In this document: one piece after another, positions 18,311 through 64,000 of the stretch
Layout: every line of letters begins with the position of its first letter
Position numbering within the stretch: the first letter of the stretch is position 1
From: Xanthobacteraceae bacterium
GTDB lineage: Bacteria; Pseudomonadota; Alphaproteobacteria; Rhizobiales; Xanthobacteraceae
Assembly (NCBI GenBank): GCA_049698215.1
Contig: JBAVXH010000428.1
Span: 613-64,612, forward strand
Direction: 5' to 3'
Length of the DNA stretch: 64,000 nt
Program-made: the position numbers and the translations under genes
The notes under the pieces: model-generated
Told to the model about the DNA's origin: nothing
Databases searched by the model: none
The model's input: only the letters and a program-made list of their open reading frames with translations

Positions 18311-18314
18311 CGTC

Positions 18315-48106: not shown

Positions 48107-48836
48107 GGTCTACAAGCTCCGCAAGTCCTTCAGCGGATTCACGGCGGTCGACGGCGTGAGTCTCGCGGTGCCGGCGCGCGGCATCACGGCGGTGATCGGC
48201 CCGAATGGCGCCGGCAAGTCGACACTCTTCAACCTGCTCACCGGCCATCTGCGCGCGGACGAGGGCAGCGTCGCATTCGAGGGCCGCGACATCACGACGG
48301 CCGCGCCGCACGCGATCTGCCGCATGGGCGTCGGCCGCTCGTTCCAGCATACGAACATCTTCCGCAAGCTCACCGTGTTCGAGAATGTGCGGGCTGCGCT
48401 GATCGCGCATGGCGGGCAGGCGCGCAACTTCTGGGGCCGCGCCGAAGGGCTCTACCGCGACGAGACAATGGCGCTGCTTGCCTCGCTCGGCCTCGCCGAA
48501 CAGGCGAACGCGGTCAGCGGCGAGCTGTCCCACGGCGTGCAGAAGCAGCTCGAGCTCGGCATCGCGCTCGCCAGCGACCCGAAGCTTCTGTTGCTCGACG
48601 AGCCGACCGCCGGAATGTCGGCGAGCGAGACGCGCGAGGCGATCCGGCTCCTCGAACGCGTCGTCGCGGAGCGCAAACTCACCCTTCTGTTCACCGAGCA
48701 CGACATGGGTGTCGTGTTTTCGATCGCGCAGAAGATCGCGGTGCTGCATCAGGGCAGGCTCATCGCCGAAGGCACGCCCACGGAAGTCCGCGCGAGCGCC
48801 GAGGTGCGGCGCGTCTATCTCGGGGGGCGACAGTGA
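48099..48836 (+). CDS. livG: ABC transporter ATP-binding protein (LivG-type)
   Basis: GPNGAGKST, LSHGVQKQLELGIAL, LLLDEPTAGM. Confidence 0.9.
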   Translation: MLEVYKLRKSFSGFTAVDGVSLAVPARGITAVIGPNGAGKSTLFNLLTGHLRADEGSVAFEGRDITTAAPHAICRMGVGRSFQHTNIFRKLTVFENVRAALIAHGGQARNFWGRAEGLYRDETMALLASLGLAEQANAVSGELSHGVQKQLELGIALASDPKLLLLDEPTAGMSASETREAIRLLERVVAERKLTLLFTEHDMGVVFSIAQKIAVLHQGRLIAEGTPTEVRASAEVRRVYLGGRQ

Positions 48837-49546
48837 GCCTGCTCGACGTCCACGACATCCACGCCGCCTACGGCTCGTCGCGCGTGCTGTTCGGCATCTC
48901 GCTTGACGTCGCGCGCGGTGAGTGCGTCTGCCTGCTCGGCCGCAACGGCGTCGGCAAGACGACCACCATGCGCGCCATCATGGGACTGACTCCGCCCTCC
49001 TCCGGCAGGATCGTCTTCGACGGGACGGACATCACCGGGGCGGCGCCGCATCGAATCGCGCGGCTCGGCATAGGCTTCGTGCCGGAAGACCGCCGCATCT
49101 TCGCCGAGCTGACGGTCTGGGAGAACCTCGACGTGTCGGCGCGCGCCGCCGGCCGTCCCGGCCGCTGGACCATCGAGGCAGTGTACGGCCTTTTCCCCAA
49201 GCTCAGGGAGCTGGCCAACCGGCAGGGCGGATTCCTCTCAGGCGGCGAGCAGCAGATGCTCACCATCGGCCGCACGCTGATGGGAAATCCCGACCTGCTG
49301 CTGCTCGACGAGCCGTCCGAGGGCCTTGCGCCGCTCGTGGTGGAAAACCTGCTCGAGCAAGTGAGCCGCCTCAAGCGTGAGGGGCTCACCATCCTGCTCG
49401 CCGAACAGGGCGTCGACTTCTCGCTCGCGCTCGCCGATCGCGTCTACGTGCTGGAGAAAGGCGCGGTGCGCTTCGCGGGCGCCGCCGCCGAGCTGCGCGA
49501 CAACCCACGCCTGCGCGATGAACTGCTCGCACTGTCTGCCGCATAA
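48833..49546 (+). CDS. livF: ABC transporter ATP-binding protein (LivF-type)
   Basis: GRNGVGKTT, LSGGEQQMLTIGRTL, LLLDEPSEGL. Confidence 0.9.
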   Translation: MSLLDVHDIHAAYGSSRVLFGISLDVARGECVCLLGRNGVGKTTTMRAIMGLTPPSSGRIVFDGTDITGAAPHRIARLGIGFVPEDRRIFAELTVWENLDVSARAAGRPGRWTIEAVYGLFPKLRELANRQGGFLSGGEQQMLTIGRTLMGNPDLLLLDEPSEGLAPLVVENLLEQVSRLKREGLTILLAEQGVDFSLALADRVYVLEKGAVRFAGAAAELRDNPRLRDELLALSAA

Positions 49547-49560
49547 CAAGGGAGGAAGCC

Positions 49561-49767
49561 ATGCCGTTCGTGAATATCCAGATCCTCAAGGGCCATCCGC
49601 AGAAGCGCAAGGACGAGATCGCGCGCCGCGTGGTCGCGACCGTGAGCGAGCTCGCGCAATTGCCGCCCGAGGCGGTGTGGGTCGTGTTCGACGAGTTGCC
49701 GGCGACGGACTGGTACGTCGGCAACACGCGCGTCGACATCCTGAAGAAGCAGGCGGCAAAGAAATGA
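49561..49767 (+). CDS. 4-oxalocrotonate tautomerase-family enzyme
   Basis: 68 aa; MPFVNIQILKG (catalytic Pro1 after Met removal). Confidence 0.8.
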   Translation: MPFVNIQILKGHPQKRKDEIARRVVATVSELAQLPPEAVWVVFDELPATDWYVGNTRVDILKKQAAKK

Positions 49768-50678
49768 ACGACACCGCCGCCAATCAAGCCAACGTCGAGA
49801 TCCGCGATCGGGCGTTCCGCGCGGTCGTCGGGGAATCCGTCGCGATCGAGCGGATCGCGACCGGCTTCCTGTTCACCGAAGGTCCGCTCTGGCACGCGCG
49901 GGAGAAATATCTCCTGTTCAGCGACATGCCGGGCGACCACATGCGGAAATGGACGGCGCGCGGCGGGACTGCGACGTTCCGCAAGCCCTGCGCGCAGTCG
50001 AACGGCCTCACCTGGGATCGGCAGGGCCGCCTCCTTGTCTGCGAGCACGCGACCAGCAAGGTCACGCGCACCGAGGCCGACGGGAGCAGCACCGTGATTG
50101 CGAGCCATCACGATGGCAAGGAGCTGAACAGCCCCAACGACATCGTGGTGAAGTCGGACGGCGGCATCTATTTCTCGGATCCGACCTACGGCCGCAACGA
50201 GTACTACGGCAATCCGCGTCCGCTGCCGCGCGACTTTCGGGGCGTCTACCGGGCCGAGCCGGAGGGCGGCAAGCTCACGCTGCTGGCGGACGATTTCGGC
50301 CAGCCGAACGGGCTCTGCTTTTCGCGCGACGAGCGGCTGCTCTTCGTCAACGACACCGACCGCCAGCACATTCGCGTCTTCGATGTGCAGCCCGATGGGA
50401 CGCTCGCGAACAGCCGGGTGTGGGCCGAGACGAAGGGCGAAGGTGCGGGCGCGCCGGACGGCATGAAGATCGACAGCGCCGGCAACGTGTACTGCTGCGG
50501 CCCCGGGGGTATCCACGTGTTCTCGCCCGACGCAATCTGCCTCGGTGTGATCCGCATGCCGGAGTACACGGCGAACTTCTGCTTCGGCGACGACGACCTG
50601 CGCAGCCTTTATGTAACCGCCTCGACGTCGCTCTATCGGCTTCGGGTCGAGACTCCGGGTACGTCCCAAGGGCGATAA
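49764..50678 (+). CDS. SMP-30/gluconolactonase/LRE-family hydrolase
   Basis: In-frame part of ORF 49377..50678, from ATG 49764 (ATGA overlap with the tautomerase stop). TEGPLW, SNGLTWD, PNDIVV, PNGLCFS, PDGMKID blade motifs. Confidence 0.8.
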   Translation: MNDTAANQANVEIRDRAFRAVVGESVAIERIATGFLFTEGPLWHAREKYLLFSDMPGDHMRKWTARGGTATFRKPCAQSNGLTWDRQGRLLVCEHATSKVTRTEADGSSTVIASHHDGKELNSPNDIVVKSDGGIYFSDPTYGRNEYYGNPRPLPRDFRGVYRAEPEGGKLTLLADDFGQPNGLCFSRDERLLFVNDTDRQHIRVFDVQPDGTLANSRVWAETKGEGAGAPDGMKIDSAGNVYCCGPGGIHVFSPDAICLGVIRMPEYTANFCFGDDDLRSLYVTASTSLYRLRVETPGTSQGR

Positions 50679-50770: not shown

Positions 50771-51103
50771 ATGCCTGGCTACTATGACACCCAGCACCTC
50801 GCGGATTTCGGTAAGATCGCTGAGGTGAAACCGGAACTCGGCAACAAGTTCTTCGACTACTACGGCAGTGTGTTCGCCGACGGGGCGCTCTCGGCTCGGG
50901 AGAAAAGCCTGATCGCGCTTGCCGTCGCTCACGCGGTGCAATGTCCGTACTGCATCGACGCCTATACGCAAGACTGCCAGCAAAAGGGAGCCGACATCGA
51001 GCAAATGACCGAGGCGCTGCATGTCGCCGTCGCGATCAGAGGCGGAGCCTCCCTGGTGCATGGTATGCAGATGCGCGGTCACGTCCAGAAGCTGGGGATG
51101 TAA
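50771..51103 (+). CDS. Carboxymuconolactone decarboxylase/AhpD-like protein (the type found next to ArsS-like radical SAM genes)
   Basis: LIALAVAHAVQCPYCIDAY (CxxC of the AhpD/CMD fold); 110 aa; 2-bp gap to the radical SAM gene. Confidence 0.7.
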   Translation: MPGYYDTQHLADFGKIAEVKPELGNKFFDYYGSVFADGALSAREKSLIALAVAHAVQCPYCIDAYTQDCQQKGADIEQMTEALHVAVAIRGGASLVHGMQMRGHVQKLGM

Positions 51104-51105
51104 AA

Positions 51106-52215
51106 ATGAGCCCGGCGGCCGAAGCGCTCGAGGGGGTGGTCGAGGATCTTGCCCGCGACCTGAAGACCCCACGCGCCGGCGCGACGTTACGCAGGCGCAG
51201 TGCTCCGCTTGCCGAAACGGCGGAGCAACTTAAGCTTCTTGCGGCAGTACCGCTCGAGCGGCAGAGCAAGCGGATCGAGTTTGCGACGTCGGCGGACAAC
51301 CTGTCTCCCGCCGCGCTCGAAATCTTTCAGGTCAATGTCGGAAAGCTCTGCAACATGACCTGCCGCCACTGTCATGTGGATGCCGGCCCCGACCGAACCG
51401 ACGCGGTCATGCCGGATGCGATCATGGACGCGGTGATCGCGGCGATCGGCCGAACGCGGGCCCACACGGTTGACATCACCGGCGGAGCGCCCGAGCTGCA
51501 TCCGCGCTTTCGCGATCTCGTCGAAGCCTCTGTTGCGGCCGGCAAGCATGTCATGGATCGATGCAACCTCACGATCCTGCTGCTTCCGCGCAACAAGGGG
51601 CTGGTGGATTGGTTTGCCGAGCGCAGGGTCGAGGTCGTTGCCTCGCTGCCGCACTATCGCCGTCCGAATACCGATGCGCAGCGCGGCCAAGGCGTCTTCG
51701 ATCGATCGATTGAAGCCATGCGGCTTCTCAACGCCGCAGGCTATGGACGCGGCGATCCTGCGCGGCGATTGACTCTCGTCTCGAATCCGGCAGGCGCCTT
51801 TCTGGGCGCCTCGCAATCGACCGCCGAGCGGGAGTGGCGGCAGTCCCTGGAACGCGAGCATGGAGTCACATTCGACCGTCTCTTCGTCCTCAACAACATG
51901 CCGATCTCGCGATTTCTTGAGTGGCTGCAGCAGAGCGGGAATTTGGAGGCCTACATGCAGCGGCTGGTGCAGGCCTTCAATCCGGCGGCCGTGGCGGGCC
52001 TGATGTGCCGCAACACGCTTTCGGTTGGCTGGGATGGACGGCTCTACGATTGCGATTTCAACCAGATGCTCGACCTGGAGATCGCGCTGCCCGACGGGCC
52101 GCACATTTCGACGTTCAGCGAGGACAGCTGGGGCAAGCGCTCCATCGTCACGGCTCGTCATTGCTTTGGGTGCACCGCAGGCGCGGGAAGTTCGTGCGGC
52201 GGACAAACCGCCTGA
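51106..52215 (+). CDS. arsS: Radical SAM / Cys-rich C-terminus protein, ArsS-like (arsenosugar biosynthesis family)
   Basis: CNMTCRHC (CxxxCxxC) and the family-typical C-terminal HCFGCTAGAGSSCGG. Family assignment is from memory of the rSAM/Cys-rich (TIGR04167-type) description. The start is uncertain: it gives an N-terminal ~60 aa extension. Confidence 0.7.
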   Translation: MSPAAEALEGVVEDLARDLKTPRAGATLRRRSAPLAETAEQLKLLAAVPLERQSKRIEFATSADNLSPAALEIFQVNVGKLCNMTCRHCHVDAGPDRTDAVMPDAIMDAVIAAIGRTRAHTVDITGGAPELHPRFRDLVEASVAAGKHVMDRCNLTILLLPRNKGLVDWFAERRVEVVASLPHYRRPNTDAQRGQGVFDRSIEAMRLLNAAGYGRGDPARRLTLVSNPAGAFLGASQSTAEREWRQSLEREHGVTFDRLFVLNNMPISRFLEWLQQSGNLEAYMQRLVQAFNPAAVAGLMCRNTLSVGWDGRLYDCDFNQMLDLEIALPDGPHISTFSEDSWGKRSIVTARHCFGCTAGAGSSCGGQTA

Positions 52216-52568
52216 CGCTCCAGGCTTTTGATCCGAGTCCCGCCGCTCGCTTGGTGTAGGACAACTCGGCATCAAGCCGTCCGCCAGTTGTAACGCCGGT
52301 TCAGGCGATTGAGATGCGGAATGGAGCCCGAGAACGCCTGCATCGCCCGACTGCGCCTTCCGACCGACCCGATGGTCCTGGCGGTCATGCCTTGGTTGCG
52401 AAGACCTCATAGCGCACGGAACAAATTGGTTTGACCGGCAACACCGGCGCAGTGACAATCCACAATTGAGACCAGACCTGCGGCCAGGCCGGGGCGACCC
52501 TTTTCGACCGAGAGCCGGCATCAGCATGCGCTACGACAAGGACGCCTGGTCGGTCAAGGAGAGAAAGC

Positions 52569-54713
52569 ATGGACACGAGGACATTGTATCTCGGCGTCGC
52601 GGCGATCGCCGTCGCTTTGATCGCGTCACCGTCCTCGCTGTGCGCCCAGCAAGCCGCGAGTGCGCAGGTCAGCGTCGGGCCCGACAACATCGGCGGCATA
52701 GTGTCCGGTCCGAACGGCCCGGAGGCGGGCGTGTGGGTGATCGCCGAGACCACCGATCTCCCGACGCGTTACACCAAGAGCGTCGTCACCGACGATCAGG
52801 GCCGCTACGTCATCCCCGACCTGCCGAATGCGAACTATCAGGTCTGGGTGCGCGGCTATGGCCTGATCGACTCGCCGCGGATGCGCGCAAAGCCCGGCCA
52901 GACACTCAACCACACCGCCATCAAGGCGCCCGACGAGCGCTCCGCCGCCCATTACTATCCGGCGATCTACTGGTACACGATGATGAAGATCCCGCCGGCT
53001 GCGGATTTCGGCGGGCACACCGATATTCCGAAGAACATCACGCGCGAGGTCTGGCTGCAGCGGATGAACAATGTCGACTGCGTCGGCTGCCATCAGCTTG
53101 GGCAGGAATCGACGCGCACCGTTCCGGCGCAGTTCGGCAAGTTCGACTCGGGCGCGGACGCCTGGGTACGCCGCATCGCCTCGGGTCAGTCAGGCGAGAT
53201 GATGACGAACCGGCTCGCCGGTCAGCTCGGCGGCGTGCCGTACAAGTATTTGGGTGACTGGACCGATCGTGTCGCAAAAGGCGATCTGCCCAAGCACAAG
53301 CCCCAGCGCCCGTCCGGTATCGAGCGCAACATCGTGGTGACGACGTGGGACTGGTCGACGCCGGACAAGTATCTGCACGACCTGATCTCGTCAGACCGGC
53401 GCAAGCCAACGGTCAATGCCAACGGCCTGCTCTACGGCGCGCCGGAGTATTCGACCGACTTGATGCCGATCCTTGATCCGAAGACGCACAAGGTGTCGTA
53501 CTTCAAGATGCCGGTGGCCGATCCCGGCATGCCGGTCTCGCTCGGACCGGGCCACGCCGGCGCGATCAAGCCGACGATGGCGTCCGCCTATTGGGGCGAG
53601 GAAGTCCTCTGGGATACCAAGGCGAACCAGCACAACGCGATGTTCGACGACAAGGGCCGCGTCTGGCTTGCCGCGACGGTGCGCGGCATGGACAATCCGG
53701 CCTGGTGCAAGAAGGGCTCGGAGCATCCGTCCGCGAAGGTGTTCCCGATCGAGCGCTCGCCGCGTCAGGCGAGCGTGCTCGATCCGAAGACGATGAAATA
53801 CGAGTTCGTCGACACCTGCTTCGGCACGCATCATCCGCAGTTCGGCTACGACGCCGACAACACGCTCTGGCTCTCGGGTTCGGGTCCCGTGGCGGGTTGG
53901 GTCAACACCAAGGTGTGGGACGAGACCAAGGACCCGCAGAAGGCCGTCGGCTGGTTCCCGTTCGTGCTCGACGTGAACGGCAACGGCAAGCTCGACGAAT
54001 TCAGCGAGCCGGGCAAAGCGGAAGAAGGCAAGGATATGCGCTTCAATCCGGGCTCCGGTCCCTACGCGGTGATGCCGCATCCGACCGACGGCTCGGTCTG
54101 GTACACGTCCGGCACGTTCGCCGGACGGGCGGGCTTCCTGCGCTTCGATCCCAAAACCAAGCTCTCCGAGTTCTTTGCGCTTCCGAGGGAAGCGGTCGGC
54201 GTGCGCGGCGGCGACATCGGCGCCGACGGCCGGCTGTGGGGCTCGGGCTCTGCGGGCCATCTGATCGAGTTCGACCGCCGCAAGTGCAAGGGCCCGCTCA
54301 ATGGGCCGAACGCGACCGGCGATCACTGCCCGGAAGGCTTCACGCTGCACAAGTATCCGGGACCGGGCTTCGACGACGTGCCGAATTCGAGCGCGGAGGC
54401 GAGCTACTATACGTGGGTCGATCACCACAACGCGGTCGGCCTTGGGCCGGACGTTCCGATCTCGACCGCGAACCTTCAAGATGGCTTCGTCGGCTTCAAA
54501 GACGGACAGATGATCCTGATGCGCGTGCCGTATCCGATGGGCTACTACGCCAAGGGTCTCGACGCGCGTATCGACGACCCGAATGCCGGCTGGAAGGGCC
54601 GTGGCCTGTGGAGCGCCAGCGGCGACCGCACGCCGTGGCTGAACGAGCTCGGCAAGGGCGCGCGCCCGATGGCGGTGCACATCCAGGTGCGGCCGGACCC
54701 GCTGGCGAAGTAG
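52569..54713 (+). CDS. Secreted ~714-aa protein of unknown function: N-terminal carboxypeptidase-regulatory-like beta-sandwich, single CxxCH haem-c motif, large C-terminal (propeller-like) region
   Basis: Signal peptide LGVAAIAVALIASPSSLCAQQ. GIVSGPNGPEAGVWVIAETTD...DDQGRYVIPDLP...YQVWVRGYG. CVGCHQLG. GGAGAG Shine-Dalgarno 8 nt upstream. Confidence 0.75.
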   Translation: MDTRTLYLGVAAIAVALIASPSSLCAQQAASAQVSVGPDNIGGIVSGPNGPEAGVWVIAETTDLPTRYTKSVVTDDQGRYVIPDLPNANYQVWVRGYGLIDSPRMRAKPGQTLNHTAIKAPDERSAAHYYPAIYWYTMMKIPPAADFGGHTDIPKNITREVWLQRMNNVDCVGCHQLGQESTRTVPAQFGKFDSGADAWVRRIASGQSGEMMTNRLAGQLGGVPYKYLGDWTDRVAKGDLPKHKPQRPSGIERNIVVTTWDWSTPDKYLHDLISSDRRKPTVNANGLLYGAPEYSTDLMPILDPKTHKVSYFKMPVADPGMPVSLGPGHAGAIKPTMASAYWGEEVLWDTKANQHNAMFDDKGRVWLAATVRGMDNPAWCKKGSEHPSAKVFPIERSPRQASVLDPKTMKYEFVDTCFGTHHPQFGYDADNTLWLSGSGPVAGWVNTKVWDETKDPQKAVGWFPFVLDVNGNGKLDEFSEPGKAEEGKDMRFNPGSGPYAVMPHPTDGSVWYTSGTFAGRAGFLRFDPKTKLSEFFALPREAVGVRGGDIGADGRLWGSGSAGHLIEFDRRKCKGPLNGPNATGDHCPEGFTLHKYPGPGFDDVPNSSAEASYYTWVDHHNAVGLGPDVPISTANLQDGFVGFKDGQMILMRVPYPMGYYAKGLDARIDDPNAGWKGRGLWSASGDRTPWLNELGKGARPMAVHIQVRPDPLAK

Positions 54714-54767
54714 GAGACAATCGAGACACCGGGGCCGCGATGTGGCCCCGGCGCACATCCTGAGAGA

Positions 54768-54812
54768 GCATGATCCCGAAAAGTGTGAAGCGGTCTTCGG
54801 ACAAGATCATGC
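54768..54812. repeat. 45-bp intergenic palindromic (REP-like) element, copy 2
   Basis: GCATGATCCCGAAAAGTGTGAAGCGGTCTTCGGACAAGATCATGC; 40/45 identical to 40950-40994. Lies between the two paralogous haem-motif genes. Confidence 0.8.
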
Positions 54813-54867
54813 GCAAGGAAGACAGAGACGATCCGCAGGATCACCTCTGCGACGGCAGGAGGGCGAC

Positions 54868-56976
54868 ATGACATTCCGACAGTTTCTTTTTGCGAGCGTG
54901 ACCGCGGCCGGTATCGCGGCATTGTCTGTGAACGCGAACGCGCAACAGGTCTCCGTCAACGTCGACAACATCGGCGGCGTGGTGACGGGTCCGGACGGCC
55001 CGGAGGCGGGCGTCTGGGTGATCGCCGAGACCACCGACCTGCCGACGCGGCTGATCAAGAGCGTCGTGACCGACGACCAGGGCCGCTATCTCATCCCCGA
55101 GCTGCCCAAGGCGACCTACGAGGTTTTCGCGCGCGGATATGGCTTGAAGGATTCGACGCGGCAGAAGAGCGAGCCCGGCAAGGTGGTCAACATCACGACG
55201 ACGGCGGCGACGCCGAAGGAGGCGGCCGAGCACTACCCGGCGATCTACTGGTACGCGATGCTGAGGGCACCGGCGAAGCATGAATTTCCGCTCGGCAATG
55301 CCAAGACGCAGGCCGAGTGGATGAACGTCGTGAAGACCAACGGCTGCTACGGCTGCCATGCGCTCGGTAACAAGGCGACGCGCACGATTCCTTCGGTGTT
55401 CGCCGACATGAAGTCCGAGGATGCCTGGTCGCGCCGCATTATGTCGGGTCAGGCCATGACCAACATGGCGACCGCGATCGGCCGCGTCGATGCGCAGCGC
55501 GCCCTCAAGCACTTCGCCGATTGGACCGACCGCATTGCGGATGGCGAGCTGCCGGCCGCGAAGCCGCCGCGCCCGCAAGGCCAGGAGCGCAATGTCGTCG
55601 TCACGCAGTGGGATTTCTCCGATCCCAAGCATTATCTGCACGACATCACGGCGACCGACAAGCGCAAGCCGACGCTCAATCCCAACGGGTTGATCTATGG
55701 CGCCGTCGAGAACTCCACCGATCTCGTCCCGATCCTCGATCCGGTGAAGCACACGGCGACGACGCTCAGGATGCCGGTGCGCGATCCGAACACGCCCTCG
55801 CACAAGGACGATCCGCTCTCGCCCTCGCCCTACTGGGGCGAGGAGATTCTCTGGGACAGCCGCACCGCGACGCACAATCCGATGTACGACCAGAGCGGCC
55901 GGGTATGGTGGACCTCGCGCGTCGGCGTGGCGCAGAACCCGGACTTCTGCCGCAAGGGCTCGGATCATCCGTCGGCGAAAGTCTTCCCGATGGAGAGTTC
56001 GACGCGGCATCTGTCGATGCTCGATCCGAAGAGCGGCAAGATCACGCTGATCCGCACCTGTTACCAGACGCACCATCTCGTCTTCGCCGAGGACGCCAAC
56101 AATACGCTCTGGATGAGCGCGGGCGGTCCCGGCAGCGGTGCGCTTGGCTGGCTCGACACCAAGAAATTCGACGAGACCGGCGATGAGCAGAAATCGCAAG
56201 GCTGGACCCCGATCGTTCTGGACACCAACGGCAACGGCAAGCGCGACGAGTACGTCGAGCCGAACCAGCCGCTCGATCCCGCCAAGGACAAGCGCATCGT
56301 CGGCGCGCTCTACGGCATCGGCGTCAACCCGCAGGACGGCACGATCTGGGGCTCGATCCTGACCTTCCCGGGGTACATCGTGCGCGTCGATCCCGGGCCG
56401 AATCCGTCCGAGACGGCGCTTGCCGAGATCTACGAGCCGCCCGCGCCCGGCTACGGCCCGCGCGGCTTCGACATCGACCGCAACGGCGTCGCCTGGGTAC
56501 CGCTCTCGAGCGGACACATGGCGTCTTTTGACCGGAAGAAGTGCAAGGGCCCGCTGAATGGTCCAGCCGCCACGACCGGCCGCCACTGCCCGGAGGGCTG
56601 GACGCTCTACGATTTCCCCGGTCCCAAGCATGCCGACGCGCCGGACATCGGCAGCGCGGAGGCGAGCTATTACACCTGGGTCGACCAGTTCGACACGTTC
56701 GGGCTCGGGCAGAACGTGGCGTGGGCGACCGGCAACGCCAACGAGTCGCTGATGGCGCTGGTCGACGGCAAATGGCTCAATTTCGTCGTGCCGTATCCGA
56801 ACGGCTTCTATGCCAAATGGATGGATGGCCGGATCGACGATCCAAATGGCGGCTGGAAGGGACGCGGCGTCTGGGCCACCTACGGCACACGCACGCCGTT
56901 CCACACGGAAACCGGAAAGGGCACGCGGCCGAAGGTGGTGAAATTCCAGCTCCGGCCCGATCCGCTTGCGCGGTGA
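54868..56976 (+). CDS. Paralogue of 52569..54713 (secreted, single CxxCH motif, unknown function)
   Basis: Start at ATG 54868 (MTFRQFLFASVTAAGIAALSVNANAQQ) with AGGAGGG upstream. CYGCHALG. Long collinear identity to the upstream gene (e.g. GPEAGVWVIAETTDLPTR, SVVTDDQGRY, HYPAIYWY, RKCKGPLNGP, EASYYTWVD). Confidence 0.75.
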   Translation: MTFRQFLFASVTAAGIAALSVNANAQQVSVNVDNIGGVVTGPDGPEAGVWVIAETTDLPTRLIKSVVTDDQGRYLIPELPKATYEVFARGYGLKDSTRQKSEPGKVVNITTTAATPKEAAEHYPAIYWYAMLRAPAKHEFPLGNAKTQAEWMNVVKTNGCYGCHALGNKATRTIPSVFADMKSEDAWSRRIMSGQAMTNMATAIGRVDAQRALKHFADWTDRIADGELPAAKPPRPQGQERNVVVTQWDFSDPKHYLHDITATDKRKPTLNPNGLIYGAVENSTDLVPILDPVKHTATTLRMPVRDPNTPSHKDDPLSPSPYWGEEILWDSRTATHNPMYDQSGRVWWTSRVGVAQNPDFCRKGSDHPSAKVFPMESSTRHLSMLDPKSGKITLIRTCYQTHHLVFAEDANNTLWMSAGGPGSGALGWLDTKKFDETGDEQKSQGWTPIVLDTNGNGKRDEYVEPNQPLDPAKDKRIVGALYGIGVNPQDGTIWGSILTFPGYIVRVDPGPNPSETALAEIYEPPAPGYGPRGFDIDRNGVAWVPLSSGHMASFDRKKCKGPLNGPAATTGRHCPEGWTLYDFPGPKHADAPDIGSAEASYYTWVDQFDTFGLGQNVAWATGNANESLMALVDGKWLNFVVPYPNGFYAKWMDGRIDDPNGGWKGRGVWATYGTRTPFHTETGKGTRPKVVKFQLRPDPLAR

Positions 56977-57091
56977 CGTGTCACGGTGACAGCGACGCCG
57001 CGTCGGCGGATCGTTGTCACCGGAACGAGAGAAGAGACAGACGGCGGTTAGCCAGAAGCCAGCCCGCCATGGATCCGATTGGGGGCAGCCC

Positions 57092-57610
57092 ATGGGAATA
57101 ATCCCTGAGTTCTTGCTCGACTACATCACGGTCAACACCTACTGGACCATCCTGTTCACCGCCCACGCGCTGCTGGCGGTGGCGTTGCTCGGCGCGCTGT
57201 CCCACCAGGCGCTTTCGGTCGCGATGCCGGTGCGTGCGGCCGCGGGTCCGGCCGGCTTCGTGACGCGGTTTCGCGCCGTGCACAGCGCGAGCTATGCGGC
57301 CGCTGTCTGCCTGCTCTGGGTCGTGACCTTTTTCTTTGGGGCGTGGATCTACACCAAATACCGCATGCATGTCCGCATCCCGATCGAGGCGGACGGCTTC
57401 TGGAAGACGCAAGGTGTTTTCGAGTTGAAGGAACACCTCGCAACCATCGCCCTCGGCCTGCTGCCGATCTACTGGTTCTTCTGGAAGAACGCGCGCGATC
57501 CTCAATACGACAGCGCGCGCAAGTGGCTGACAGTGACCTTGGCGGGGTTTTGCTGGTTCAATTTTCTCGTCGGCCATATCGTCAACAACGTCCGGGGGTT
57601 CGGCTCATGA
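57092..57610 (+). CDS. Small integral membrane protein (about 4 TM, several conserved-looking His), unknown function
   Basis: MGIIPEFLLDYITVNTYWTILFTAHALLAVALLGALSHQ...; in-frame part of ORF 57014..57610. Confidence 0.55.
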   Translation: MGIIPEFLLDYITVNTYWTILFTAHALLAVALLGALSHQALSVAMPVRAAAGPAGFVTRFRAVHSASYAAAVCLLWVVTFFFGAWIYTKYRMHVRIPIEADGFWKTQGVFELKEHLATIALGLLPIYWFFWKNARDPQYDSARKWLTVTLAGFCWFNFLVGHIVNNVRGFGS

Positions 57611-57996
57611 GCACCACCGCGCAAGTCGCGCCCGCCGCGCGCTCCGCATCGCTCGCGTCGTCGGTGGCGTTCCGGAATTTTGCGATCGTCTTCGCCATCG
57701 CGACGCCGATCCTCTACGTGATCTGCGAAATGCGAAACTGGCCGCTGTTCACCTATCATCCCGGCACGAACCGGATCGATCTCGGCTGGGCGCCGGCCGT
57801 GAGGGACCAGGGCCCGGCAATGCACTGGTACGGCTGGACAGCGAACACCTTGCTGGTGGCGGGCGTTCTCGGCCTTGCCGCCGTGAAGCTGCCCGAAAGC
57901 ATCGTCAAGAAGATCCCGTTGTGGCTGATCTGGATTCTGCCGCTCGCCGCGATCCCGATCCTGGTTTATGGCTTGCGGTTCTACTGGCGCTGGTAA
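57607..57996 (+). CDS. Small integral membrane protein (about 3 TM), unknown function
   Basis: The ATG overlaps the upstream TGA (ATGA at 57607-57610). FRNFAIVFAIATPILYVI..., LLVAGVLGLAAV, LWLIWILPLAAIPILVYG. Confidence 0.55.
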   Translation: MSTTAQVAPAARSASLASSVAFRNFAIVFAIATPILYVICEMRNWPLFTYHPGTNRIDLGWAPAVRDQGPAMHWYGWTANTLLVAGVLGLAAVKLPESIVKKIPLWLIWILPLAAIPILVYGLRFYWRW

Positions 57997-58008
57997 GGAG
58001 ACGGCCTC

Positions 58009-58398
58009 ATGCGAAGGACAGCGTTTTGCTCCGCCTTTTGCGCAGTGGCAACGCTCGCAACGGTCGCAACGGCGCCCGCCCGCGCCGGCGGCGATGAAGA
58101 AACGGGAATGATGGACCCCGAGAATGGGCCATCCTACTTCGGCTTCGTGCGTGACAAGCGCGGCCTGGGTGTTCCGGAGGCCAGCGTCATGTTGAAGCCG
58201 AAGGACGGCGAGGCCATCGTGGTCAAGTCGAATGTGCTCGGGCTTTATCGCACGCACCTCAGCAAGGAGGTGAAACCGGACGATGTCACGGTGTCCTGCG
58301 AGAAGAGCGGATACCGGCAAGTGAACACCGCGCGCAGGAAGTCACAGTCTGCCGATGCGCCGAGCGTTGAGACGAGTTGCACGCTCGAACGGCTCTAG
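58009..58398 (+). CDS. Small secreted protein with a carboxypeptidase-regulatory-like segment
   Basis: Signal peptide AFCAVATLATVATAPARA. GFVRDKRGLGVPEASVMLKPKDGEAIVVKSNVLGLYR resembles a CarboxypepD_reg fold. Confidence 0.5.
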   Translation: MRRTAFCSAFCAVATLATVATAPARAGGDEETGMMDPENGPSYFGFVRDKRGLGVPEASVMLKPKDGEAIVVKSNVLGLYRTHLSKEVKPDDVTVSCEKSGYRQVNTARRKSQSADAPSVETSCTLERL

Positions 58399-58401
58399 GC
58401 G

Positions 58402-60072
58402 ATGCGCTGGGTCGCGTGCTGGCTCTGGCTCCTTATTCCGAGTCTGGTCCAAGCACAGCCGGACATTGTCCTCTTCAACGGAAAAATAGCTCGCTTCGAC
58501 GCCGCTCAGGCTGAGGCGCTCGCGATCCGCGACGGCCATATCACGGCGCTCGGATCGTCGGCCGAAATCCAGGCGCTGGCCGGGCCCGCCACACAGGTCA
58601 TCGATCTTGAAGGCCGCACCGTCATTCCCGGGCTGATCGACTCGCATATTCATGCGATCCGCGCCGGACTCACCTACACCACCGAAGTCCATTGGATCGG
58701 CGCCCGCTCGCTCGATGAAGCGCTGGACCGGCTTCGCGCAGCGGCTGCCAGGGCCCCGAAGGGGAGTTGGCTCATCGTCGCCGGTGGCTGGATCGAAGGG
58801 CAATTTGCCGAGAAGCGGCGGCCGACCCAGGCGGAGATCGCGGCCGCGGCGCCCGAGCATCGCGTCTATGTGCAGATGATGTATAGCGCGGCCTTGCTGA
58901 CGCGCGGCGGACTCGAGGCGCTGGGCATCCTGAAGGATGCCGAGCTTGGCTCACGCCTCACCGTGGACCTGGACTCCTCCGGCAATCCGACCGGGTGGGT
59001 GAGCGGCGACGCGCGGACCATCAGCGACCTTTATGACAAGCTTCCCCATCCGACACTGGAGCAACAAGTCAAAGGCACCCGTGCTTTCTTCCGCGAGCTG
59101 AACAGCCTCGGCATCACGGGGGTGCTCGATCCGGGTGGCTATAACCTTCCCATCAATGCCTACCGCGCGGTGTTCAGGTTATGGCGCGAGCAGGGACTCA
59201 CATTGCGCGTCGTTTATAGTCTCTGCGCGCCGCGCCGGAATCACGAACTGGAGGACTTCCAGGCGTTGACCGCGATGTTGCCGATGGGCTTCGGCGACGG
59301 CTGGCTCAAGTTCAACGGTATCGGCGAGAACGTCACCTGGAGCATGTACAACAATGACACGCCCGCCGAGCCGCAGAAGGAACAGCTCTACCGCACGCTT
59401 AGCTGGGCGGCGCAGCGCGGCATCACCGCGACCTTCCATTGGAACAACAACCGTTCAGTCCATCACCTGCTCGACGTCCTGGAGCGCGTGAACCGGGAAA
59501 TTCCGATCGCGCCGCTGCGGTGGTCGATCGCGCACCTCAACGATGCCTCGCTGGACAATCTCGTGCGCATCAAGGCGCTCGGCGCCGGCTGGCTGATGCA
59601 GAATGCGCTCTACTTCCGCGGCGAGGCTTTCTTCGGCCAGCGCGGCGCCGAGGCGATCCGGCTCGCGCCGCCGATCGGGGCGGCGCTCAGGATGGAAATC
59701 CCCATCGGGGGGGGGACTGACGCGCACCGGGTGATGTCGTTCAACCCCTTCGTGTCGCTGCAATGGATGCTCGATGGCAGGACAGTCATGGGCTTGCCGA
59801 CGCGCACGGCTGACGAAATGCCGACGCGCATCGAGGCGCTACGCCTCTATACGGAAGGCAGCGCATGGTTTTCCTTTGACGACACGCGCCGGGGCTCGCT
59901 TGCGGTGGGCAAGCTTGCGGATCTTGCCGTTCTCACCGAGGACTATCTCACCATCCCTGTGGACCGGATCGGCAGGATTCGTTCGGTGCTGACCATGGTC
60001 GGCGGCCGCATCGTTCATGCAGCGGAGCGCTACGCCGCGTTCGAATCGGAACGGAGAGTCCGCGACCGATGA
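58402..60072 (+). CDS. Amidohydrolase-family (amidohydrolase 3 / metal-dependent TIM-barrel) hydrolase, secreted or periplasmic
   Basis: Signal-like WLWLLIPSLVQAQ. VIPGLIDSHIHAIRAG (HxH metal site). C-terminal GSLAVGKLADLAVL, typical of the family. Confidence 0.8.
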   Translation: MRWVACWLWLLIPSLVQAQPDIVLFNGKIARFDAAQAEALAIRDGHITALGSSAEIQALAGPATQVIDLEGRTVIPGLIDSHIHAIRAGLTYTTEVHWIGARSLDEALDRLRAAAARAPKGSWLIVAGGWIEGQFAEKRRPTQAEIAAAAPEHRVYVQMMYSAALLTRGGLEALGILKDAELGSRLTVDLDSSGNPTGWVSGDARTISDLYDKLPHPTLEQQVKGTRAFFRELNSLGITGVLDPGGYNLPINAYRAVFRLWREQGLTLRVVYSLCAPRRNHELEDFQALTAMLPMGFGDGWLKFNGIGENVTWSMYNNDTPAEPQKEQLYRTLSWAAQRGITATFHWNNNRSVHHLLDVLERVNREIPIAPLRWSIAHLNDASLDNLVRIKALGAGWLMQNALYFRGEAFFGQRGAEAIRLAPPIGAALRMEIPIGGGTDAHRVMSFNPFVSLQWMLDGRTVMGLPTRTADEMPTRIEALRLYTEGSAWFSFDDTRRGSLAVGKLADLAVLTEDYLTIPVDRIGRIRSVLTMVGGRIVHAAERYAAFESERRVRDR

Positions 60073-60358: not shown

Positions 60359-60877
60359 ATGGCGAGCGCAGGCGATTCCATTCACCCGGTCGCGATCGAG
60401 CATCTGCCGATGTTCATCACGCCGCCGGGCGAGACCGACGTGCTCCTGGTGACGTGCGCGGTCATCCTGGCGGTTTCCGTGCTCGGTTTCGGCGTCTTCT
60501 TCTTCCGTCTGCACTCGCTGCCCGAACACATCGCGCACAAGTCCGACAAGATGCAGGCCGAGCTCGTGGCGGTGCTCTGCCTCATCTCCCTGTTCACGCA
60601 CATGCACATTTTCTGGATCATCGGCCTCGTGCTGGCGATGATCGAACTGCCGGATTTCGGCGGACCGCTCAGCCGCATCGCGGGATCGACCGAGAAGCTC
60701 GCCGGTTTCAAACCCGGGGAAGGCGATGTCGAGGTGCCGCGCGGCGGCGGAGCTCATGGGCACGCCGCCGCGGAGGAACCGCCGCCGGCCGATGCGGGTG
60801 CGAAGCAAGCCGAGGCGATCCCGCTTCCGGCGAGAGAGGCTGCGCAGGCAAAGCACAGGGGGCGCGCCCATGCTTGA
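60359..60877 (+). CDS. DUF3302-like small inner-membrane protein (YiaW/YibI-like) with a disordered C-terminal tail
   Basis: VLLVTCAVILAVSVLGFGVFFFRLHSLPEHIAHK...VLCLISLFTHMHIFWIIGLVLAM resembles E. coli YiaW/YibI (recalled). Alternative start at 60410 (MFITPPG). Confidence 0.5.
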   Translation: MASAGDSIHPVAIEHLPMFITPPGETDVLLVTCAVILAVSVLGFGVFFFRLHSLPEHIAHKSDKMQAELVAVLCLISLFTHMHIFWIIGLVLAMIELPDFGGPLSRIAGSTEKLAGFKPGEGDVEVPRGGGAHGHAAAEEPPPADAGAKQAEAIPLPAREAAQAKHRGRAHA

Positions 60878-62102
60878 GATGATGCTTTGCTCTCTCTTCA
60901 CCATCGTGCCCGACTATCTCTACCGCCGCTACGCGCAGGGAAAGCGCTTCGGCCAGGAGATCAACCTCTACACCGTGTGGTTCGAGCTGCGCTGGGGCAT
61001 CACGGGCTGCATCATCCTCACGGTGCTCCTGATCACCACGGTCTTCTACAATCATCCGGCCACCACCAACGTCACGTTGTATTTCCGCACGGTGCCGATT
61101 ATTTCCGAAGCCGTGGGGCGCGTCGCCGAGATTTTCGTTCCTCCGAGCGGCCCCATCAAAGCAGGGGATCCGATCTTCCGGCTCGACAACACGAAGCAGG
61201 TGGCCGCGGTCGAGACCGCCAAGAGCAAGATCGCCGAGGTCGAAGCATCGCTCGCGGTGGCGAAGGCCGATGTGATGAAGGCGGAAGGACAGGTCCAGGA
61301 GGCCCAGGGCAATGTCCAGCAGGCCCAGGACGAACTCGACACCAAGCTCGAGCTGCAACGCCGCAATGCCGGCGTCGTCGCGCAGCGCGACATCGAGAAA
61401 TTGCAGGTCCGGGTGAGCGCGGCTGAAGGCTCGCTTGCCGCCGCGAACGCCGCAAAGCAGGCAGCCGAGATCAAGGTGTCGCAAGTGCTCCCGGCCGAGA
61501 AGGCGAGCGCCGAAGCCGAGCTTGGGCAGGCGCAAGTCGAGCTGGACAAGACGGTCGTCCGCGCCGGCGTCGACGGGCGCGTCGAGCAGTTCTTCCTGCG
61601 CGTCGGCGACATCGTCAATCCGGTGCTGCGCCCGGCCGGCGTGCTCATTCCGGCGGGCGCGGGCCAGCGCGGCCTGCAGGCCGGCTTCAACCAGATCGAA
61701 GCGCAGATCATGAAGGCCGGGATGATCGCGGAGGTCACCTGTGTGAGCAAGCCGTTCACCGTCATCCCGATGGTCGTTACCGATGTGCAGGACTACATCG
61801 CGGCCGGCCAGTTCCGCGGCGGCGAGCAACTGATCGATCCGAACCAGGTGGCGCGGCCCGGCACGCTGCTGGCGTTTCTCGAACCGCTCTACAAAGGCGG
61901 GCTCGACGGCGTGACGCCGGGCTCAAGCTGCATCGCCAACGCCTACTCGAACAACCATGACGCCATCCACGACCCCGCCACCGGCACCATGAAGGGCATC
62001 GCGCTGCACGCCGTGGATGCGCTGGCGCTGGTGCATGCGCTGATCTTAAGGCTGCAGGCGCTGGTGCTGCCGTTCAAGACGCTCGTCTTCGCCGGGCATT
62101 GA
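60870..62102 (+). CDS. HlyD-family membrane fusion / secretion protein (YiaV/YibH-like)
   Basis: N-terminal TM, then a long coiled coil (AKSKIAEVEASLAVAKADVMKAEGQVQEAQGNVQQAQDELD...) and VVRAGVDGRVEQF beta-barrel motifs. Overlaps the upstream gene by 8 nt. Confidence 0.75.
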   Translation: MLEMMLCSLFTIVPDYLYRRYAQGKRFGQEINLYTVWFELRWGITGCIILTVLLITTVFYNHPATTNVTLYFRTVPIISEAVGRVAEIFVPPSGPIKAGDPIFRLDNTKQVAAVETAKSKIAEVEASLAVAKADVMKAEGQVQEAQGNVQQAQDELDTKLELQRRNAGVVAQRDIEKLQVRVSAAEGSLAAANAAKQAAEIKVSQVLPAEKASAEAELGQAQVELDKTVVRAGVDGRVEQFFLRVGDIVNPVLRPAGVLIPAGAGQRGLQAGFNQIEAQIMKAGMIAEVTCVSKPFTVIPMVVTDVQDYIAAGQFRGGEQLIDPNQVARPGTLLAFLEPLYKGGLDGVTPGSSCIANAYSNNHDAIHDPATGTMKGIALHAVDALALVHALILRLQALVLPFKTLVFAGH

Positions 62103-62243: not shown

Positions 62244-62966
62244 TCACTTCACCATTTCCAATGCCGCGTACGCGATACGCTGGGCGAGATGCGCCCGCGT
62301 CGCGGATGCGGGTGCGCCGCGCAGTTGCGTGAAGGTCAGGCCCTTCCCGCCAAGCTCCGCCAACAGCAGGTCGAGGGAGCCGGCATCGTCCACGTCGTAC
62401 CAGCCGGGAACGTTCACGACCGGCAGGCCAAGTTTACCGGCTCGCGCCACGGTATCGCCGTAGACCGTCGCGGTGCTCCAAGGAATGCCGACGAAAAGCT
62501 CTTCCTGCATCGCCGGGAGGCCGATGAGCGTATAGCCGCCGTCCAGCGCGGGACTCAGTACGACGCTCGTCCGCGTCCGTACCGCCTGTACCGCGTCGCG
62601 CAGGATCGAGGCCGGCAATGTCGGGCTGTCGGCGTTCACCAGGATCACGCCGGCATGCAGCGCGAGCAGTTCACGCATCGCGGTTGCCAGCCGGGCGCCG
62701 AAGTCGCCGTCGCACTGCGGATGCAGACAGAATCCCGCCGGCAGAAGCTGGCTCAAGGCATCCCCGGTTCCGCGCGGCGTGTAGACCGCGTAACCCGTCG
62801 CGCTTCCGTCTTGTGCCACTTCGCCGATTGTCTGCGTGAGGTCGCGAATGAAGCAGGCAGAGAGCGCGGCGCATTCTTCAAGCCGCAGCGGGGGTGAGAG
62901 CCGCGTCTTGGACAGACCAGCGGCCGGCGTCTTGCAGAAGATTCCGACGGCGATCGTGCTTCGCAT
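62244..62966 (-). CDS. DUF2064-family (CofC/glycosyltransferase-like nucleotidyltransferase fold) protein
   Basis: IAVGIFCKTPAAGLSKTRLSPPL is the typical DUF2064 N-terminus (AKxPxxGxxKTRL). Start set at ATG 62964-62966. Confidence 0.6.
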   Translation of the reverse strand: MRSTIAVGIFCKTPAAGLSKTRLSPPLRLEECAALSACFIRDLTQTIGEVAQDGSATGYAVYTPRGTGDALSQLLPAGFCLHPQCDGDFGARLATAMRELLALHAGVILVNADSPTLPASILRDAVQAVRTRTSVVLSPALDGGYTLIGLPAMQEELFVGIPWSTATVYGDTVARAGKLGLPVVNVPGWYDVDDAGSLDLLLAELGGKGLTFTQLRGAPASATRAHLAQRIAYAALEMVK

Positions 62967-63094
62967 TCCGTTCTCCCGACCACGGTCGAACACGTTTGCG
63001 CGGGCGCTGTCACCAACGTGCTTCATGCAAATTCGGCGTGGGGGCGCGAACGTTACTAACCCTCACGCGTTCGTGATGCCGAACACTGTAGGCG

Positions 63095-64000
63095 TCACGC
63101 AAACAGAAGGTCATTTTGCGTGAGTTGATGCTGTGCATCGAGCAGCCAACTCGTCATCGCGCCGGTCGCATCGTTGTGCCACATGATGTCGCTCACGCCG
63201 TTGTGGTCCAAATCACCGATGGCAGCGACGCTCGATCCCACCGGATGCGCACCAAGATCGACGCTCGCCGCCCAGTGACCATCCTCAAGCTCCCAAATCT
63301 CGGCGGTGTTGTCATTGGTCCAGAGAATGTCGCTGGTGCCATCACCGTTGAAGTCCCCGATCGCGGGCCGCCATCCCGGCGGGTGCCCACCGATATCGAC
63401 GCTCGCGGACCATCGGCCACCCTTGAGCATCCAGAAGTCGATATTGTTCGTCTCCGGATTAAACCACGCGATGTCGGTTGCGCCATCGCCATTGAAATCG
63501 CCGGCGCCGATCGGCTGCCATCCGGCCGGATGCGAGCCGAGATCGATGCTTGCCGACCACCCACCGTCCTTGAGCATCCAGATATCGACGTTACCCGATG
63601 CGGCGTTGTACCAGGCGATGTCGCTGGCGCCATCGCCGTTGAAGTCGCTGGTCGCGACGGGCCGCCATGCCATCGGATGTGAGCCGACCTCGATGCTGGC
63701 GGCCCAGCGGCCGTCGGCGAGCTGCCACATGTCGATGGCGCCGGTTGCCGGATTGTACCAGGCGGCATCGCTGGCACCGTCGCCGGTGAAATCGGCGATG
63801 CCGACGGGCACCCAACCAGCGGGGTGATAACCCGTATCGACGCTGCCGGCCCAGCGGCTGTCGGCGAGCTTCCACAGGTCGAGGTTTCCGCTCGCGGCGT
63901 TGAACCAGGCGAGGTCGCCGGTGCCGTCGGCGTTGAAGTCACCGGAACCCACCGGCAGCCAGCCGGCCGGATGCGACCCCACCGAGACGGTCCCGGCAAG
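63095..64000 (-). CDS. FG-GAP/VCBS-repeat protein, C-terminal part; gene continues beyond the right edge
   Basis: At least six ~49-aa repeats HP.GW.P.G.GDFNGDG.SDI.W.N...G....W.L.DG.W.AS.D.G. The frame stays open upstream of the annotated GTG to position 64000 (LAGTVSVGSHPAGW continues the repeat). Confidence 0.75.
   Translation of the reverse strand, partial: LAGTVSVGSHPAGWLPVGSGDFNADGTGDLAWFNAASGNLDLWKLADSRWAGSVDTGYHPAGWVPVGIADFTGDGASDAAWYNPATGAIDMWQLADGRWAASIEVGSHPMAWRPVATSDFNGDGASDIAWYNAASGNVDIWMLKDGGWSASIDLGSHPAGWQPIGAGDFNGDGATDIAWFNPETNNIDFWMLKGGRWSASVDIGGHPPGWRPAIGDFNGDGTSDILWTNDNTAEIWELEDGHWAASVDLGAHPVGSSVAAIGDLDHNGVSDIMWHNDATGAMTSWLLDAQHQLTQNDLLFA

Follow-up and report, generated by a model that had tools for sequence, protein, structure and literature searches.

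Two adjacent genes of a large, uncharacterised family of exported beta-sandwich/putative cytochrome c/beta-propeller proteins in a Xanthobacteraceae genome

Introduction

Cytochrome cd1 nitrite reductase (NirS), the type II quinohaemoprotein alcohol dehydrogenases, and the pyrroloquinoline quinone (PQQ) dehydrogenases of the soluble glucose dehydrogenase (sGDH) type that carry a cytochrome share a common logic: a Sec-exported monohaem class I cytochrome c is combined with a beta-propeller that houses the catalytic site, and electrons are passed to soluble periplasmic carriers. The fungal extracellular pyranose dehydrogenase, in which an AA8 cytochrome, an AA12 PQQ propeller and a CBM1 module are joined, shows a three-module extracytoplasmic logic that is comparable by analogy alone, as it has a cytochrome b, a six-bladed PQQ domain and a eukaryotic host. 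Here, we describe two adjacent genes, A and B, which encode proteins with similar parts. They lie in a stretch of 64,000 nt (the window) from a Xanthobacteraceae bacterium, at positions 613 to 64,612 of contig JBAVXH010000428.1 in GenBank assembly GCA_049698215.1. All coordinates given below are positions in the window, unless another locus is named.

Two further described systems bear on individual domains of A and B. Cytochromes c-552 of Nitrosomonas europaea and c-551 of Pseudomonas resemble the haem region of A in having one early CxxCH motif, a Met some 37 residues further on, and flanking helices leading to a conserved Trp. The domain in A is longer (~125 aa), is embedded in a 714-aa protein, and its match to cytochrome c-552 is not statistically significant (E = 0.37). 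The virginiamycin/streptogramin B lyase Vgb resembles the propeller of A in its seven-bladed fold type and in the blade motif PxP..GPxG..D..G.vW. Vgb is a cytoplasmic, single-domain, haem-free protein of 299 aa, whereas A has 714 aa, a signal peptide and two extra domains, and its propeller has ~465 residues with long insertions and two disulfide-type Cys pairs. The catalytic His/Glu metal site of Staphylococcus aureus Vgb is formed by H228, E268, H270 and E284.

Compared with the haem-propeller enzymes, A and B have seven blades rather than eight (NirS, PQQ alcohol dehydrogenases) or six (sGDH), and their cytochrome domain sits between a beta-sandwich and the propeller, unlike the arrangement in the NirS, PQQ and sGDH systems. 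We conclude that A and B belong to a large, widespread and uncharacterised family, built from known folds in an architecture without a characterised counterpart. Their parts resemble those of haem c-propeller enzymes, and nothing in them forces a surprising mechanism.

Results and Discussion

Domain architecture of A and B

Six co-directional ORFs (open reading frames) were found on the + strand between 52569 and 60072, as a preliminary description of the locus had read them. The first two, A and B, have the following parts:

52569-54713 (+): gene A, an ORF of 714 aa that matches NCBI MGB9370068.1 exactly; predicted exported protein with a beta-sandwich, a monohaem cytochrome c and a seven-bladed propeller
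52569-52667 (+): predicted Sec-type signal peptide of A, read from the sequence; cleavage approximately after LCA or ASA
52689-52916 (+): N-terminal CarboxypepD_reg-like beta-sandwich of A, residues 41-116 (Pfam PF13620 at 27.4 bits, AlphaFold2 model)
52926-53303 (+): predicted helical, class-I-like cytochrome c domain of A, residues ~120-245 (AlphaFold2 helices within 123-236, weak cytochrome matches)
53079-53093 (+): putative haem-attachment motif CVGCH of A (C171, C174, H175), from conservation
53202-53204 (+): M212 of A, probable sixth haem ligand, from conservation
53316-54710 (+): seven-bladed, Vgb-like beta-propeller of A with long insertions, residues ~250-714 (AlphaFold2 model, Foldseek, profile, conservation)
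54868-56976 (+): gene B, paralogue of A, an ORF of 702 aa from the ATG at 54868, NCBI MGB9370069.1
55345-55359 (+): CYGCH of B, residues 160-164, coordinates from the sequence
55465-55467 (+): M200 of B, coordinates from the sequence

Aligned from end to end (BLASTP E = 0), A and B share 49% identity and the same domain order, which agrees with their initial description as adjacent paralogues of common architecture. B keeps all residues that are invariant in an alignment of 17 family members, and its ribosome-binding site and ATG context is conserved among orthologues. Both NCBI records come from a Xanthobacteraceae metagenome-assembled genome (MAG) and are named “carboxypeptidase regulatory-like domain-containing protein”. 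The N-termini of A and B are both of the Sec type, and all orthologues examined have the same positive n-region, hydrophobic core and AxA-Q motif, in line with the signal peptides noted earlier. Residues 1-31 of A are modelled with a predicted local distance difference test score (pLDDT) below 50.

The AlphaFold2 model of A was built from an alignment of 17 diverse full-length members with 34-53% identity. The model is confident (pLDDT 86.5, predicted template modelling score 0.88) and divides into a beta-sandwich at residues 41-116, a domain made up of helices (~120-245) and about 29 strands from residue 255 to 707. The sandwich has seven strands at pLDDT 95-98. The CarboxypepD_reg model (PF13620) matches residues ~41-114 at 27.4 bits in A and 30.9 bits in B, against a Pfam cut-off of 32.3, and it is listed for most homologues in the precomputed Pfam annotation. 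The CarboxypepD_reg-like sandwich of the preliminary description is thus retained as a confidently modelled fold in A, with family scores just under the threshold.

Beyond this N-terminal domain, Pfam, NCBIfam and PDB sequence searches found no match to A or B, leaving about 600 of A's 714 residues uncovered by any curated family. The preliminary description had been unable to place A and B in a characterised family; the sequence searches and Foldseek agree on this point. Literature searches for this architecture returned no relevant published counterpart.

The mature forms of A and B each contain six Cys, two in the haem motif and two conserved pairs, which in A are C380/C417 and C573/C587. 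The conserved Cys pairs reported for the ~450-aa region are therefore present in both proteins. A stretch of nearly identical DNA had also been reported between the two genes (52716-52768 and 54997-55049). It is real and extends to 91 nt at 93% identity. The stretch encodes GPEAGVWVIAETTDLP, the most invariant peptide family-wide, and its nucleotide similarity is attributed to constraint on the protein combined with high G+C content at third codon positions. Gene conversion was considered and is unneeded, given that the encoded peptide is the most invariant one in the family.

Haem domain

Each protein contains exactly one CxxCH motif, CVGCH at residues 171-175 of A and CYGCH at 160-164 of B. 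The Met-rich segment previously noted downstream of the motif contains one invariant Met, M212 in A and M200 in B. None of C171, C174, H175 and M212 varies among the 17 full-length members. Among 152 diverse sequences, the CxxCH residues are conserved at 90-93% and M212 at 93%, and the complete Cys-Cys-His-Met set is kept in 196 of the 216 family sequences spanning this part of the protein (91%).

In the model of A, which is haem-free, the region folds into helices at residues 123-127, 132-136, 159-170, 180-183, 195-204, 209-219 and 223-236, with pLDDT 75-89. The best PDB matches of a profile of the domain are, at E = 0.37, the Nitrosomonas cytochromes c-552 compared above, with which the CxxCH, the Met region and a C-terminal “ADW” helix align in order. 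Cytochrome_CBB3 gives a weak match in 6 of the 17 members, the best (E = 0.0097) falling below the cut-off. Together with the Sec-type signal peptides, the conserved motif and the helical model make it very likely that A and B carry a monohaem cytochrome c domain with His/Met ligation in the periplasm, with M212 and M200 as the probable distal ligands, and we infer from the CxxCH that the haem is covalently attached. The earlier reading of A and B, in which an exported monohaem c-type cytochrome is joined to a propeller, is very probably correct. His/Met c-type haems are usually of high potential and suited to taking electrons from a dehydrogenase.

In P0124 and P0132, both of full length, the CxxCH is missing (AN-MHLTQ and SQ-IIRYQ stand in its place), and the propeller and C-terminal motif are intact. 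Judged by sequence, they look like natural haem-less variants.

Propeller domain

The ~450-aa region with blade-like repeats was modelled as a seven-bladed propeller. Its features include a DxNxNGxxD loop, the two Cys pairs, and an invariant C-terminal QxRPxPLA strand that adjoins the first strand, where E252-R253 is invariant (strand order was read by hand). Conserved residues of the propeller are H270, D271, D276, R364, H422, D569, E589, D618, R667, D669, K676, E693, Q706 and R708.

Foldseek found no match in the PDB for the whole of A. The five best folds are virginiamycin/streptogramin B lyases (2z2o, 2qc5), which match the propeller alone (E = 3e-11, TM-score normalised to the target 0.79-0.82, ~10% identity). 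The next-best matches are propellers of the lactonase and strictosidine-synthase types, and many WD40-type scaffolds are also returned. With a profile of the family, 2qc5 (streptogramin B lyase) is matched at E = 7.5e-7, a value that arises from one blade pair matching every Vgb blade. Comparison by hhalign gave a probability of 29% over 72 columns, or two blades; the Vgb sequence used is identical to 2z2n at 297 of 299 residues. The Vgb_lyase Pfam model matched neither A nor B. With fold and blade motif shared and the hhalign result weak, the propeller is considered Vgb-like and A is not considered a Vgb orthologue. The hhalign comparison gave no residue-level alignment to the Vgb site, and the conserved residues of the A family that could be set beside it are H270, H422, E589 and E693. 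A confident match to a characterised lyase, named in the preliminary description as evidence against a new type of protein, was obtained only at the level of fold, for the propeller (Vgb, ~10% identity, hhalign 29%), and it assigns no function.

The PQQ, PQQ_2 and GSDH models gave no match to A or B at E <= 0.1 in Pfam and NCBIfam searches, and sGDH matches the A model poorly in Foldseek (TM-score ~0.4). No Cytochrom_D1 match indicative of a cytochrome cd1 nitrite reductase was found in Pfam or NCBIfam, and NirS is absent among the 50 Foldseek matches listed.

Family distribution and naming

Grouped at 50% identity, the A family comprises 5,909 clusters (E <= 1e-3), of which 1,223 have E <= 1e-30; grouping at 90% identity gives more than 8,000. 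Members were found in Xanthobacteraceae (Bradyrhizobium, Pseudolabrys, Rhodoplanes), Burkholderiales, Methylomirabilota/Rokubacteria and Acidobacteriota, among others, and the source habitats are soils and rhizospheres. Culturable strains with a monocistronic orthologue include Bradyrhizobium sp. McL0615 (WP_426525702.1) and Microvirga ossetica (WP_099514940.1). One homologue is encoded on a megaplasmid of Microvirga ossetica (L166, NZ_CP016619.1). Immediately downstream of that homologue, at 11384-11572 of the locus, lies a 62-aa ORF annotated as “PQQ-dependent sugar dehydrogenase”, which has no equivalent in the other loci.

Some homologues (P0020, P0023) are named “streptogramin lyase” by the Joint Genome Institute (JGI). 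The similarity behind this name consists of fold and blade repeat alone, and the label is misleading for the A family. Resistome surveys that rely on it could miscount A-family genes as vgb antibiotic-resistance genes.

Gene neighbourhood

Downstream of B, the cluster continues with four genes:

57092-57610 (+): gene C, 172-aa four-helix membrane protein (ORF, AlphaFold2, conservation)
57607-57996 (+): gene D, 129-aa protein with three transmembrane helices (ORF); the C stop and the D start overlap
58009-58398 (+): gene E, 129-aa predicted exported small beta-sandwich (ORF, weak CarboxypepD_reg match)
58402-60072 (+): gene F, 556-aa predicted exported Amidohydro_3 (YtcJ/AepA-like) metal-dependent hydrolase (Pfam PF07969)

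C and D overlap in an ATGA at 57607-57610, and gaps of 12 nt and 3 nt separate D from E and E from F. The ORFs and models bear out the earlier outline of this set, namely a His-containing protein with four transmembrane helices, an ATGA-coupled one with three, a small secreted protein and an amidohydrolase.

Context was examined from the A side in the 80 best genome loci, and from the C side in 80 metagenome loci found via C, of which 40 were informative in having 700 nt or more of sequence before C. C-D-E-F follows A or A-B in 16 of the 80 genome loci, so the six-gene order noted earlier is not a property of the family. In the remaining genome loci, which include all those of Bradyrhizobium, Pseudolabrys and Methylomirabilota, A stands alone in unrelated surroundings such as genes for ribosomal proteins, GGDEF proteins, Kup and ABC transporters. 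Clustering of neighbours over the 80 genome loci revealed no conserved partners of stand-alone A, only lineage-specific housekeeping contexts, and the distant members P0135 and P0177 likewise had no conserved operon partners.

Seen from the C side, an A-family gene adjoins C in 29 of the 40 informative loci, directly upstream on the same strand in 26 and divergently oriented in three (L149, L151, L164), which upholds the proposed linkage between the large proteins and the small membrane proteins. Wherever enough sequence is available beyond C, the next gene is D, and E comes after it in nearly all of these loci. The association of A, C, D and E is recurrent and occurs in three arrangements. 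F was seen solely in the C-D-E loci closer to the window and is an accessory gene, an add-on of this subset. B is a lineage-specific duplication, and a third copy (A-B-A') is present in locus L118; this tandem expansion suggests substrate diversification.

In loci L130, L132, L133 and L161, C-D-E occurs with neither an adjacent A nor F. This A-less subtype has an extra small ORF (~86-119 aa, hydrophobic N-terminus) between D and E.

C, for which 1,528 homologues were found, lacks a Pfam domain; the family gave no Pfam match even at E <= 10. It was modelled as a four-helix bundle (pLDDT 78) and has four invariant His (H25, H38, H115, H162), of which H25, H115 and H162 fall in the periplasmic half when the positive-inside rule is applied by hand. 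The best Foldseek match is not significant (E = 0.52), and cytochrome b561 and STEAP are among the non-significant matches. The suggestion of a haem-b partner is not supported for C, which has the four invariant His and neither a family match nor a significant fold match. D has no Pfam match and carries a conserved periplasmic loop (PLFTYHP ... GPAMxWYGW). E has the conserved motifs YFGFVRDxRG and CxxSGY and matches CarboxypepD_reg weakly (E = 3e-4, 21.5 bits, cut-off 32.3). A relationship between E and the N-terminal domain of A was considered and rejected, as their pairwise similarity is not significant.

F is a clear Amidohydro_3 protein, as its earlier description as a signal-peptide amidohydrolase implied. 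It matches PF07969 over profile positions 1-472 of 472 (E = 1e-82, 279.6 bits, cut-off 29.7) and carries a signal peptide and the N-terminal metal motif DSHIH (HxH). Its PDB relatives are the uncharacterised hydrolases 3igh and 3icj and no others, and no equivalog-level NCBIfam match was found.

Proposed function and alternatives

From sequence and models, we tentatively propose that A and B most likely work in the periplasm as substrate:cytochrome c oxidoreductases for which a membrane partner is optional. A and B would be exported by Sec to the periplasm as a beta-sandwich, a class-I-type cytochrome c with one covalent His/Met haem, and a large catalytic propeller. A small extracytoplasmic substrate would bind the propeller, in which a number of His, Asp, Glu, Arg and Lys residues are conserved. 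The dehydrogenase direction is the most probable one, and electrons would move from the propeller to the fused haem c and on to general periplasmic carriers, the use of which would explain why most genes of the family stand alone. In the lineage of the window, electrons may instead reach a dedicated module made of C (four transmembrane helices), D (three) and E, and in the sub-lineage that carries F, this hydrolase would process the same compound or the product formed from it. Taken together, export, a His/Met haem c, a conserved charged propeller, tandem paralogues and frequent adjacency to a His-rich membrane module are best explained in this way. The analysis establishes the paralogy, the domain architecture, the conserved haem motif, the fold relationship of the propeller and the linkage to C-D-E, while we infer redox catalysis, its direction and these roles of C, D, E and F.

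Several observations weigh against this proposal. The closest fold relative of the propeller, Vgb, is a non-redox lyase. For the propeller, the sequence revealed neither a redox cofactor nor a metal site, and Pfam and NCBIfam searches gave no match to PQQ, haem d1 or copper families. The matches of the helical domain to known cytochromes are below significance, and the cytochrome c call comes from motif conservation and the model. P0124 and P0132 at least, both of full length, lack the CxxCH and keep the propeller, which may therefore work without haem. Most members of the A family have no C, D, E or F neighbours, 11 of the 40 informative C-D-E loci have no adjacent A, and Pfam and Foldseek detected no similarity of C to any known cytochrome b.

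Alternatively, the propeller could be a non-redox lyase, lactonase or hydrolase of the Vgb, Drp35 or SMP-30 type. The enzyme would then act in the periplasm on an ester, lactone or depsipeptide-like compound, the haem c would have a structural, regulatory or redox- or gas-sensing role, and F would hydrolyse the product. The ranking of fold and profile matches, with streptogramin B lyase first and the lactonase and strictosidine-synthase types next, is consistent with this, as are the apparently haem-less full-length members and the fact that the co-located enzyme F is a hydrolase. H270, H422 and several acidic residues also resemble the His/Glu metal site of Vgb. However, the CxxCH and Met are kept in 91% of sequences, as strongly as the core of the propeller, which would be unusual for a structural appendage, and His/Met haems are poor ligand sensors. 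The similarity to Vgb is restricted to blade repeats (hhalign 29%), its catalytic residues could not be mapped onto A, and linkage to a His-rich membrane module suits electron transfer better. We regard non-redox catalysis as rather unlikely, if the best placed of the alternatives to an oxidoreductase.

A and B could also be non-enzymatic proteins for electron transfer or docking, in which the propeller and sandwich bind a partner protein, a polymer or a mineral surface and the haem relays electrons to C and D. Both propellers and CarboxypepD_reg domains often serve as platforms for binding, and WD40-type scaffolds appear among the Foldseek matches; the adjacency of C-D-E and the lack of a cofactor-binding family in Pfam and NCBIfam searches fit as well. 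Against this, most members stand alone without a conserved partner, one haem makes a short relay, and the C-terminal strand and the many charged residues, all of them invariant, resemble an active site more than an interaction surface. We consider a docking role unlikely.

An oxidoreductase remains our preferred reading. In its fullest form, A and B would found a new haem-c-dependent class of periplasmic enzyme, in which a Vgb-type propeller, possibly with an unrecognised cofactor or metal site, oxidises a soil-derived small molecule. C and D, with conserved His facing the periplasm, would then form a new membrane entry point for electrons into the respiratory chain, E would be an adaptor, and F a hydrolase of the pathway. 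This extended version is doubtful.

Intergenic structures and flanking genes

The following transcription-related features were found around A and B:

54729-54751 (+): GC-rich hairpin directly 3' of the A stop (inverted-repeat search and RNA fold, z = -3.2)
54768-54812 (+): second inverted repeat in the A-B spacer (inverted-repeat and RNA-fold analysis)
56984-57021 (+): hairpin with a 12-bp stem just 3' of the B stop (RNA fold of the B-C spacer)
52431-52459 (+): weak promoter-like site TTGACC-17-GACAAT, ~110 nt upstream of A (consensus scan)
52210-52225: terminator-like hairpin at the end of the preceding ArsS gene (consensus-type scan)

The palindrome in the A-B spacer had been described as resembling a repetitive extragenic palindromic (REP) element. 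The palindrome itself is real, with a perfect 8-nt inverted repeat at 54729-54751 and a 10-bp stem in the RNA fold. The REP interpretation was rejected on the basis of the single copy in the 64-kb window, even when 2 mismatches are allowed, and of the variable stem at the same position in other loci. A hairpin after the A stop recurs in the folded A-B and A-C spacers of related loci (L001, L003, L005, L006, L007, L010, L011, L012, L017, L022, L025 and L027), with differing stem sequences. Since position is conserved while the stem differs, the hairpin is viewed as a conserved intercistronic structure. The hairpins after A and B are GC-rich and have no T-tract, and their fixed position with differing stems suggests a selected RNA structure, such as an mRNA stabiliser or attenuator. 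They would probably set a higher level of A and B than of C to F.

The consensus scan upstream of A found one promoter-like site, against 1.1 expected by chance. The regions upstream of A in 24 loci contained no FNR/FixK box and no shared motif.

Directly upstream of A, at 50771-52215 (+), lie a TIGR04169 peroxidase-like gene and a gene for the radical SAM protein ArsS (TIGR04167, 407 bits), and a TIGR04282 glycosyltransferase gene is located 2 kb downstream of F, at 62244-63026 (-). In a Burkholderiales MAG (L026), the same ArsS pair also adjoins A-B, in another gene order (10066-11502), and the A homologue of the Microvirga ossetica plasmid (L166) is 5 kb from an arsR-arsC-arsC-aqpS-arsH set (16399-19152). 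While these neighbours, the ArsS, TIGR04169 and TIGR04282 genes of the window together with the ArsS pair of L026 and the ars operon of Microvirga, could indicate that the cluster serves organoarsenical (arsenosugar) metabolism, such a role is highly improbable: about 160 other loci, including the closest relative (L001, 93% identity), have neither ArsS nor ars genes in the vicinity of A or C, ArsS and A are separated by the terminator-like hairpin and a 353-nt gap, and the three cases may be due to chance because islands and plasmids often carry ars genes.

Further genes were noted in the flanks. At 47132-49546 (+), genes for an ABC transporter of the branched-chain amino-acid type (a permease and two ATPases) were recognised from translations read by hand, and they are followed at 49761-50678 (+) by a gene for an SMP-30/gluconolactonase-like propeller with a weak ScyD/ScyE match. 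Downstream of F, 60407-62102 (+) encodes a small DUF3302 membrane protein and, overlapping it, a periplasmic adaptor of the HlyD/EmrA type; this pair is not conserved beside the cluster elsewhere. At 63095-63982 (-), a 295-aa protein consists of FG-GAP/VCBS-like repeats of ~45 residues (GDFNGDG...W...) and has a weak “beta propeller lectin” match.

Conclusions

The C-D-E genes may constitute an independent functional unit. This uncharacterised membrane/periplasmic unit merits separate study. If A and B are oxidoreductases, their architecture of beta-sandwich, cytochrome c and seven-bladed Vgb-type propeller would be a new one among the few haem-propeller enzymes, and it would point to an extracytoplasmic substrate that is oxidised by abundant soil bacteria.

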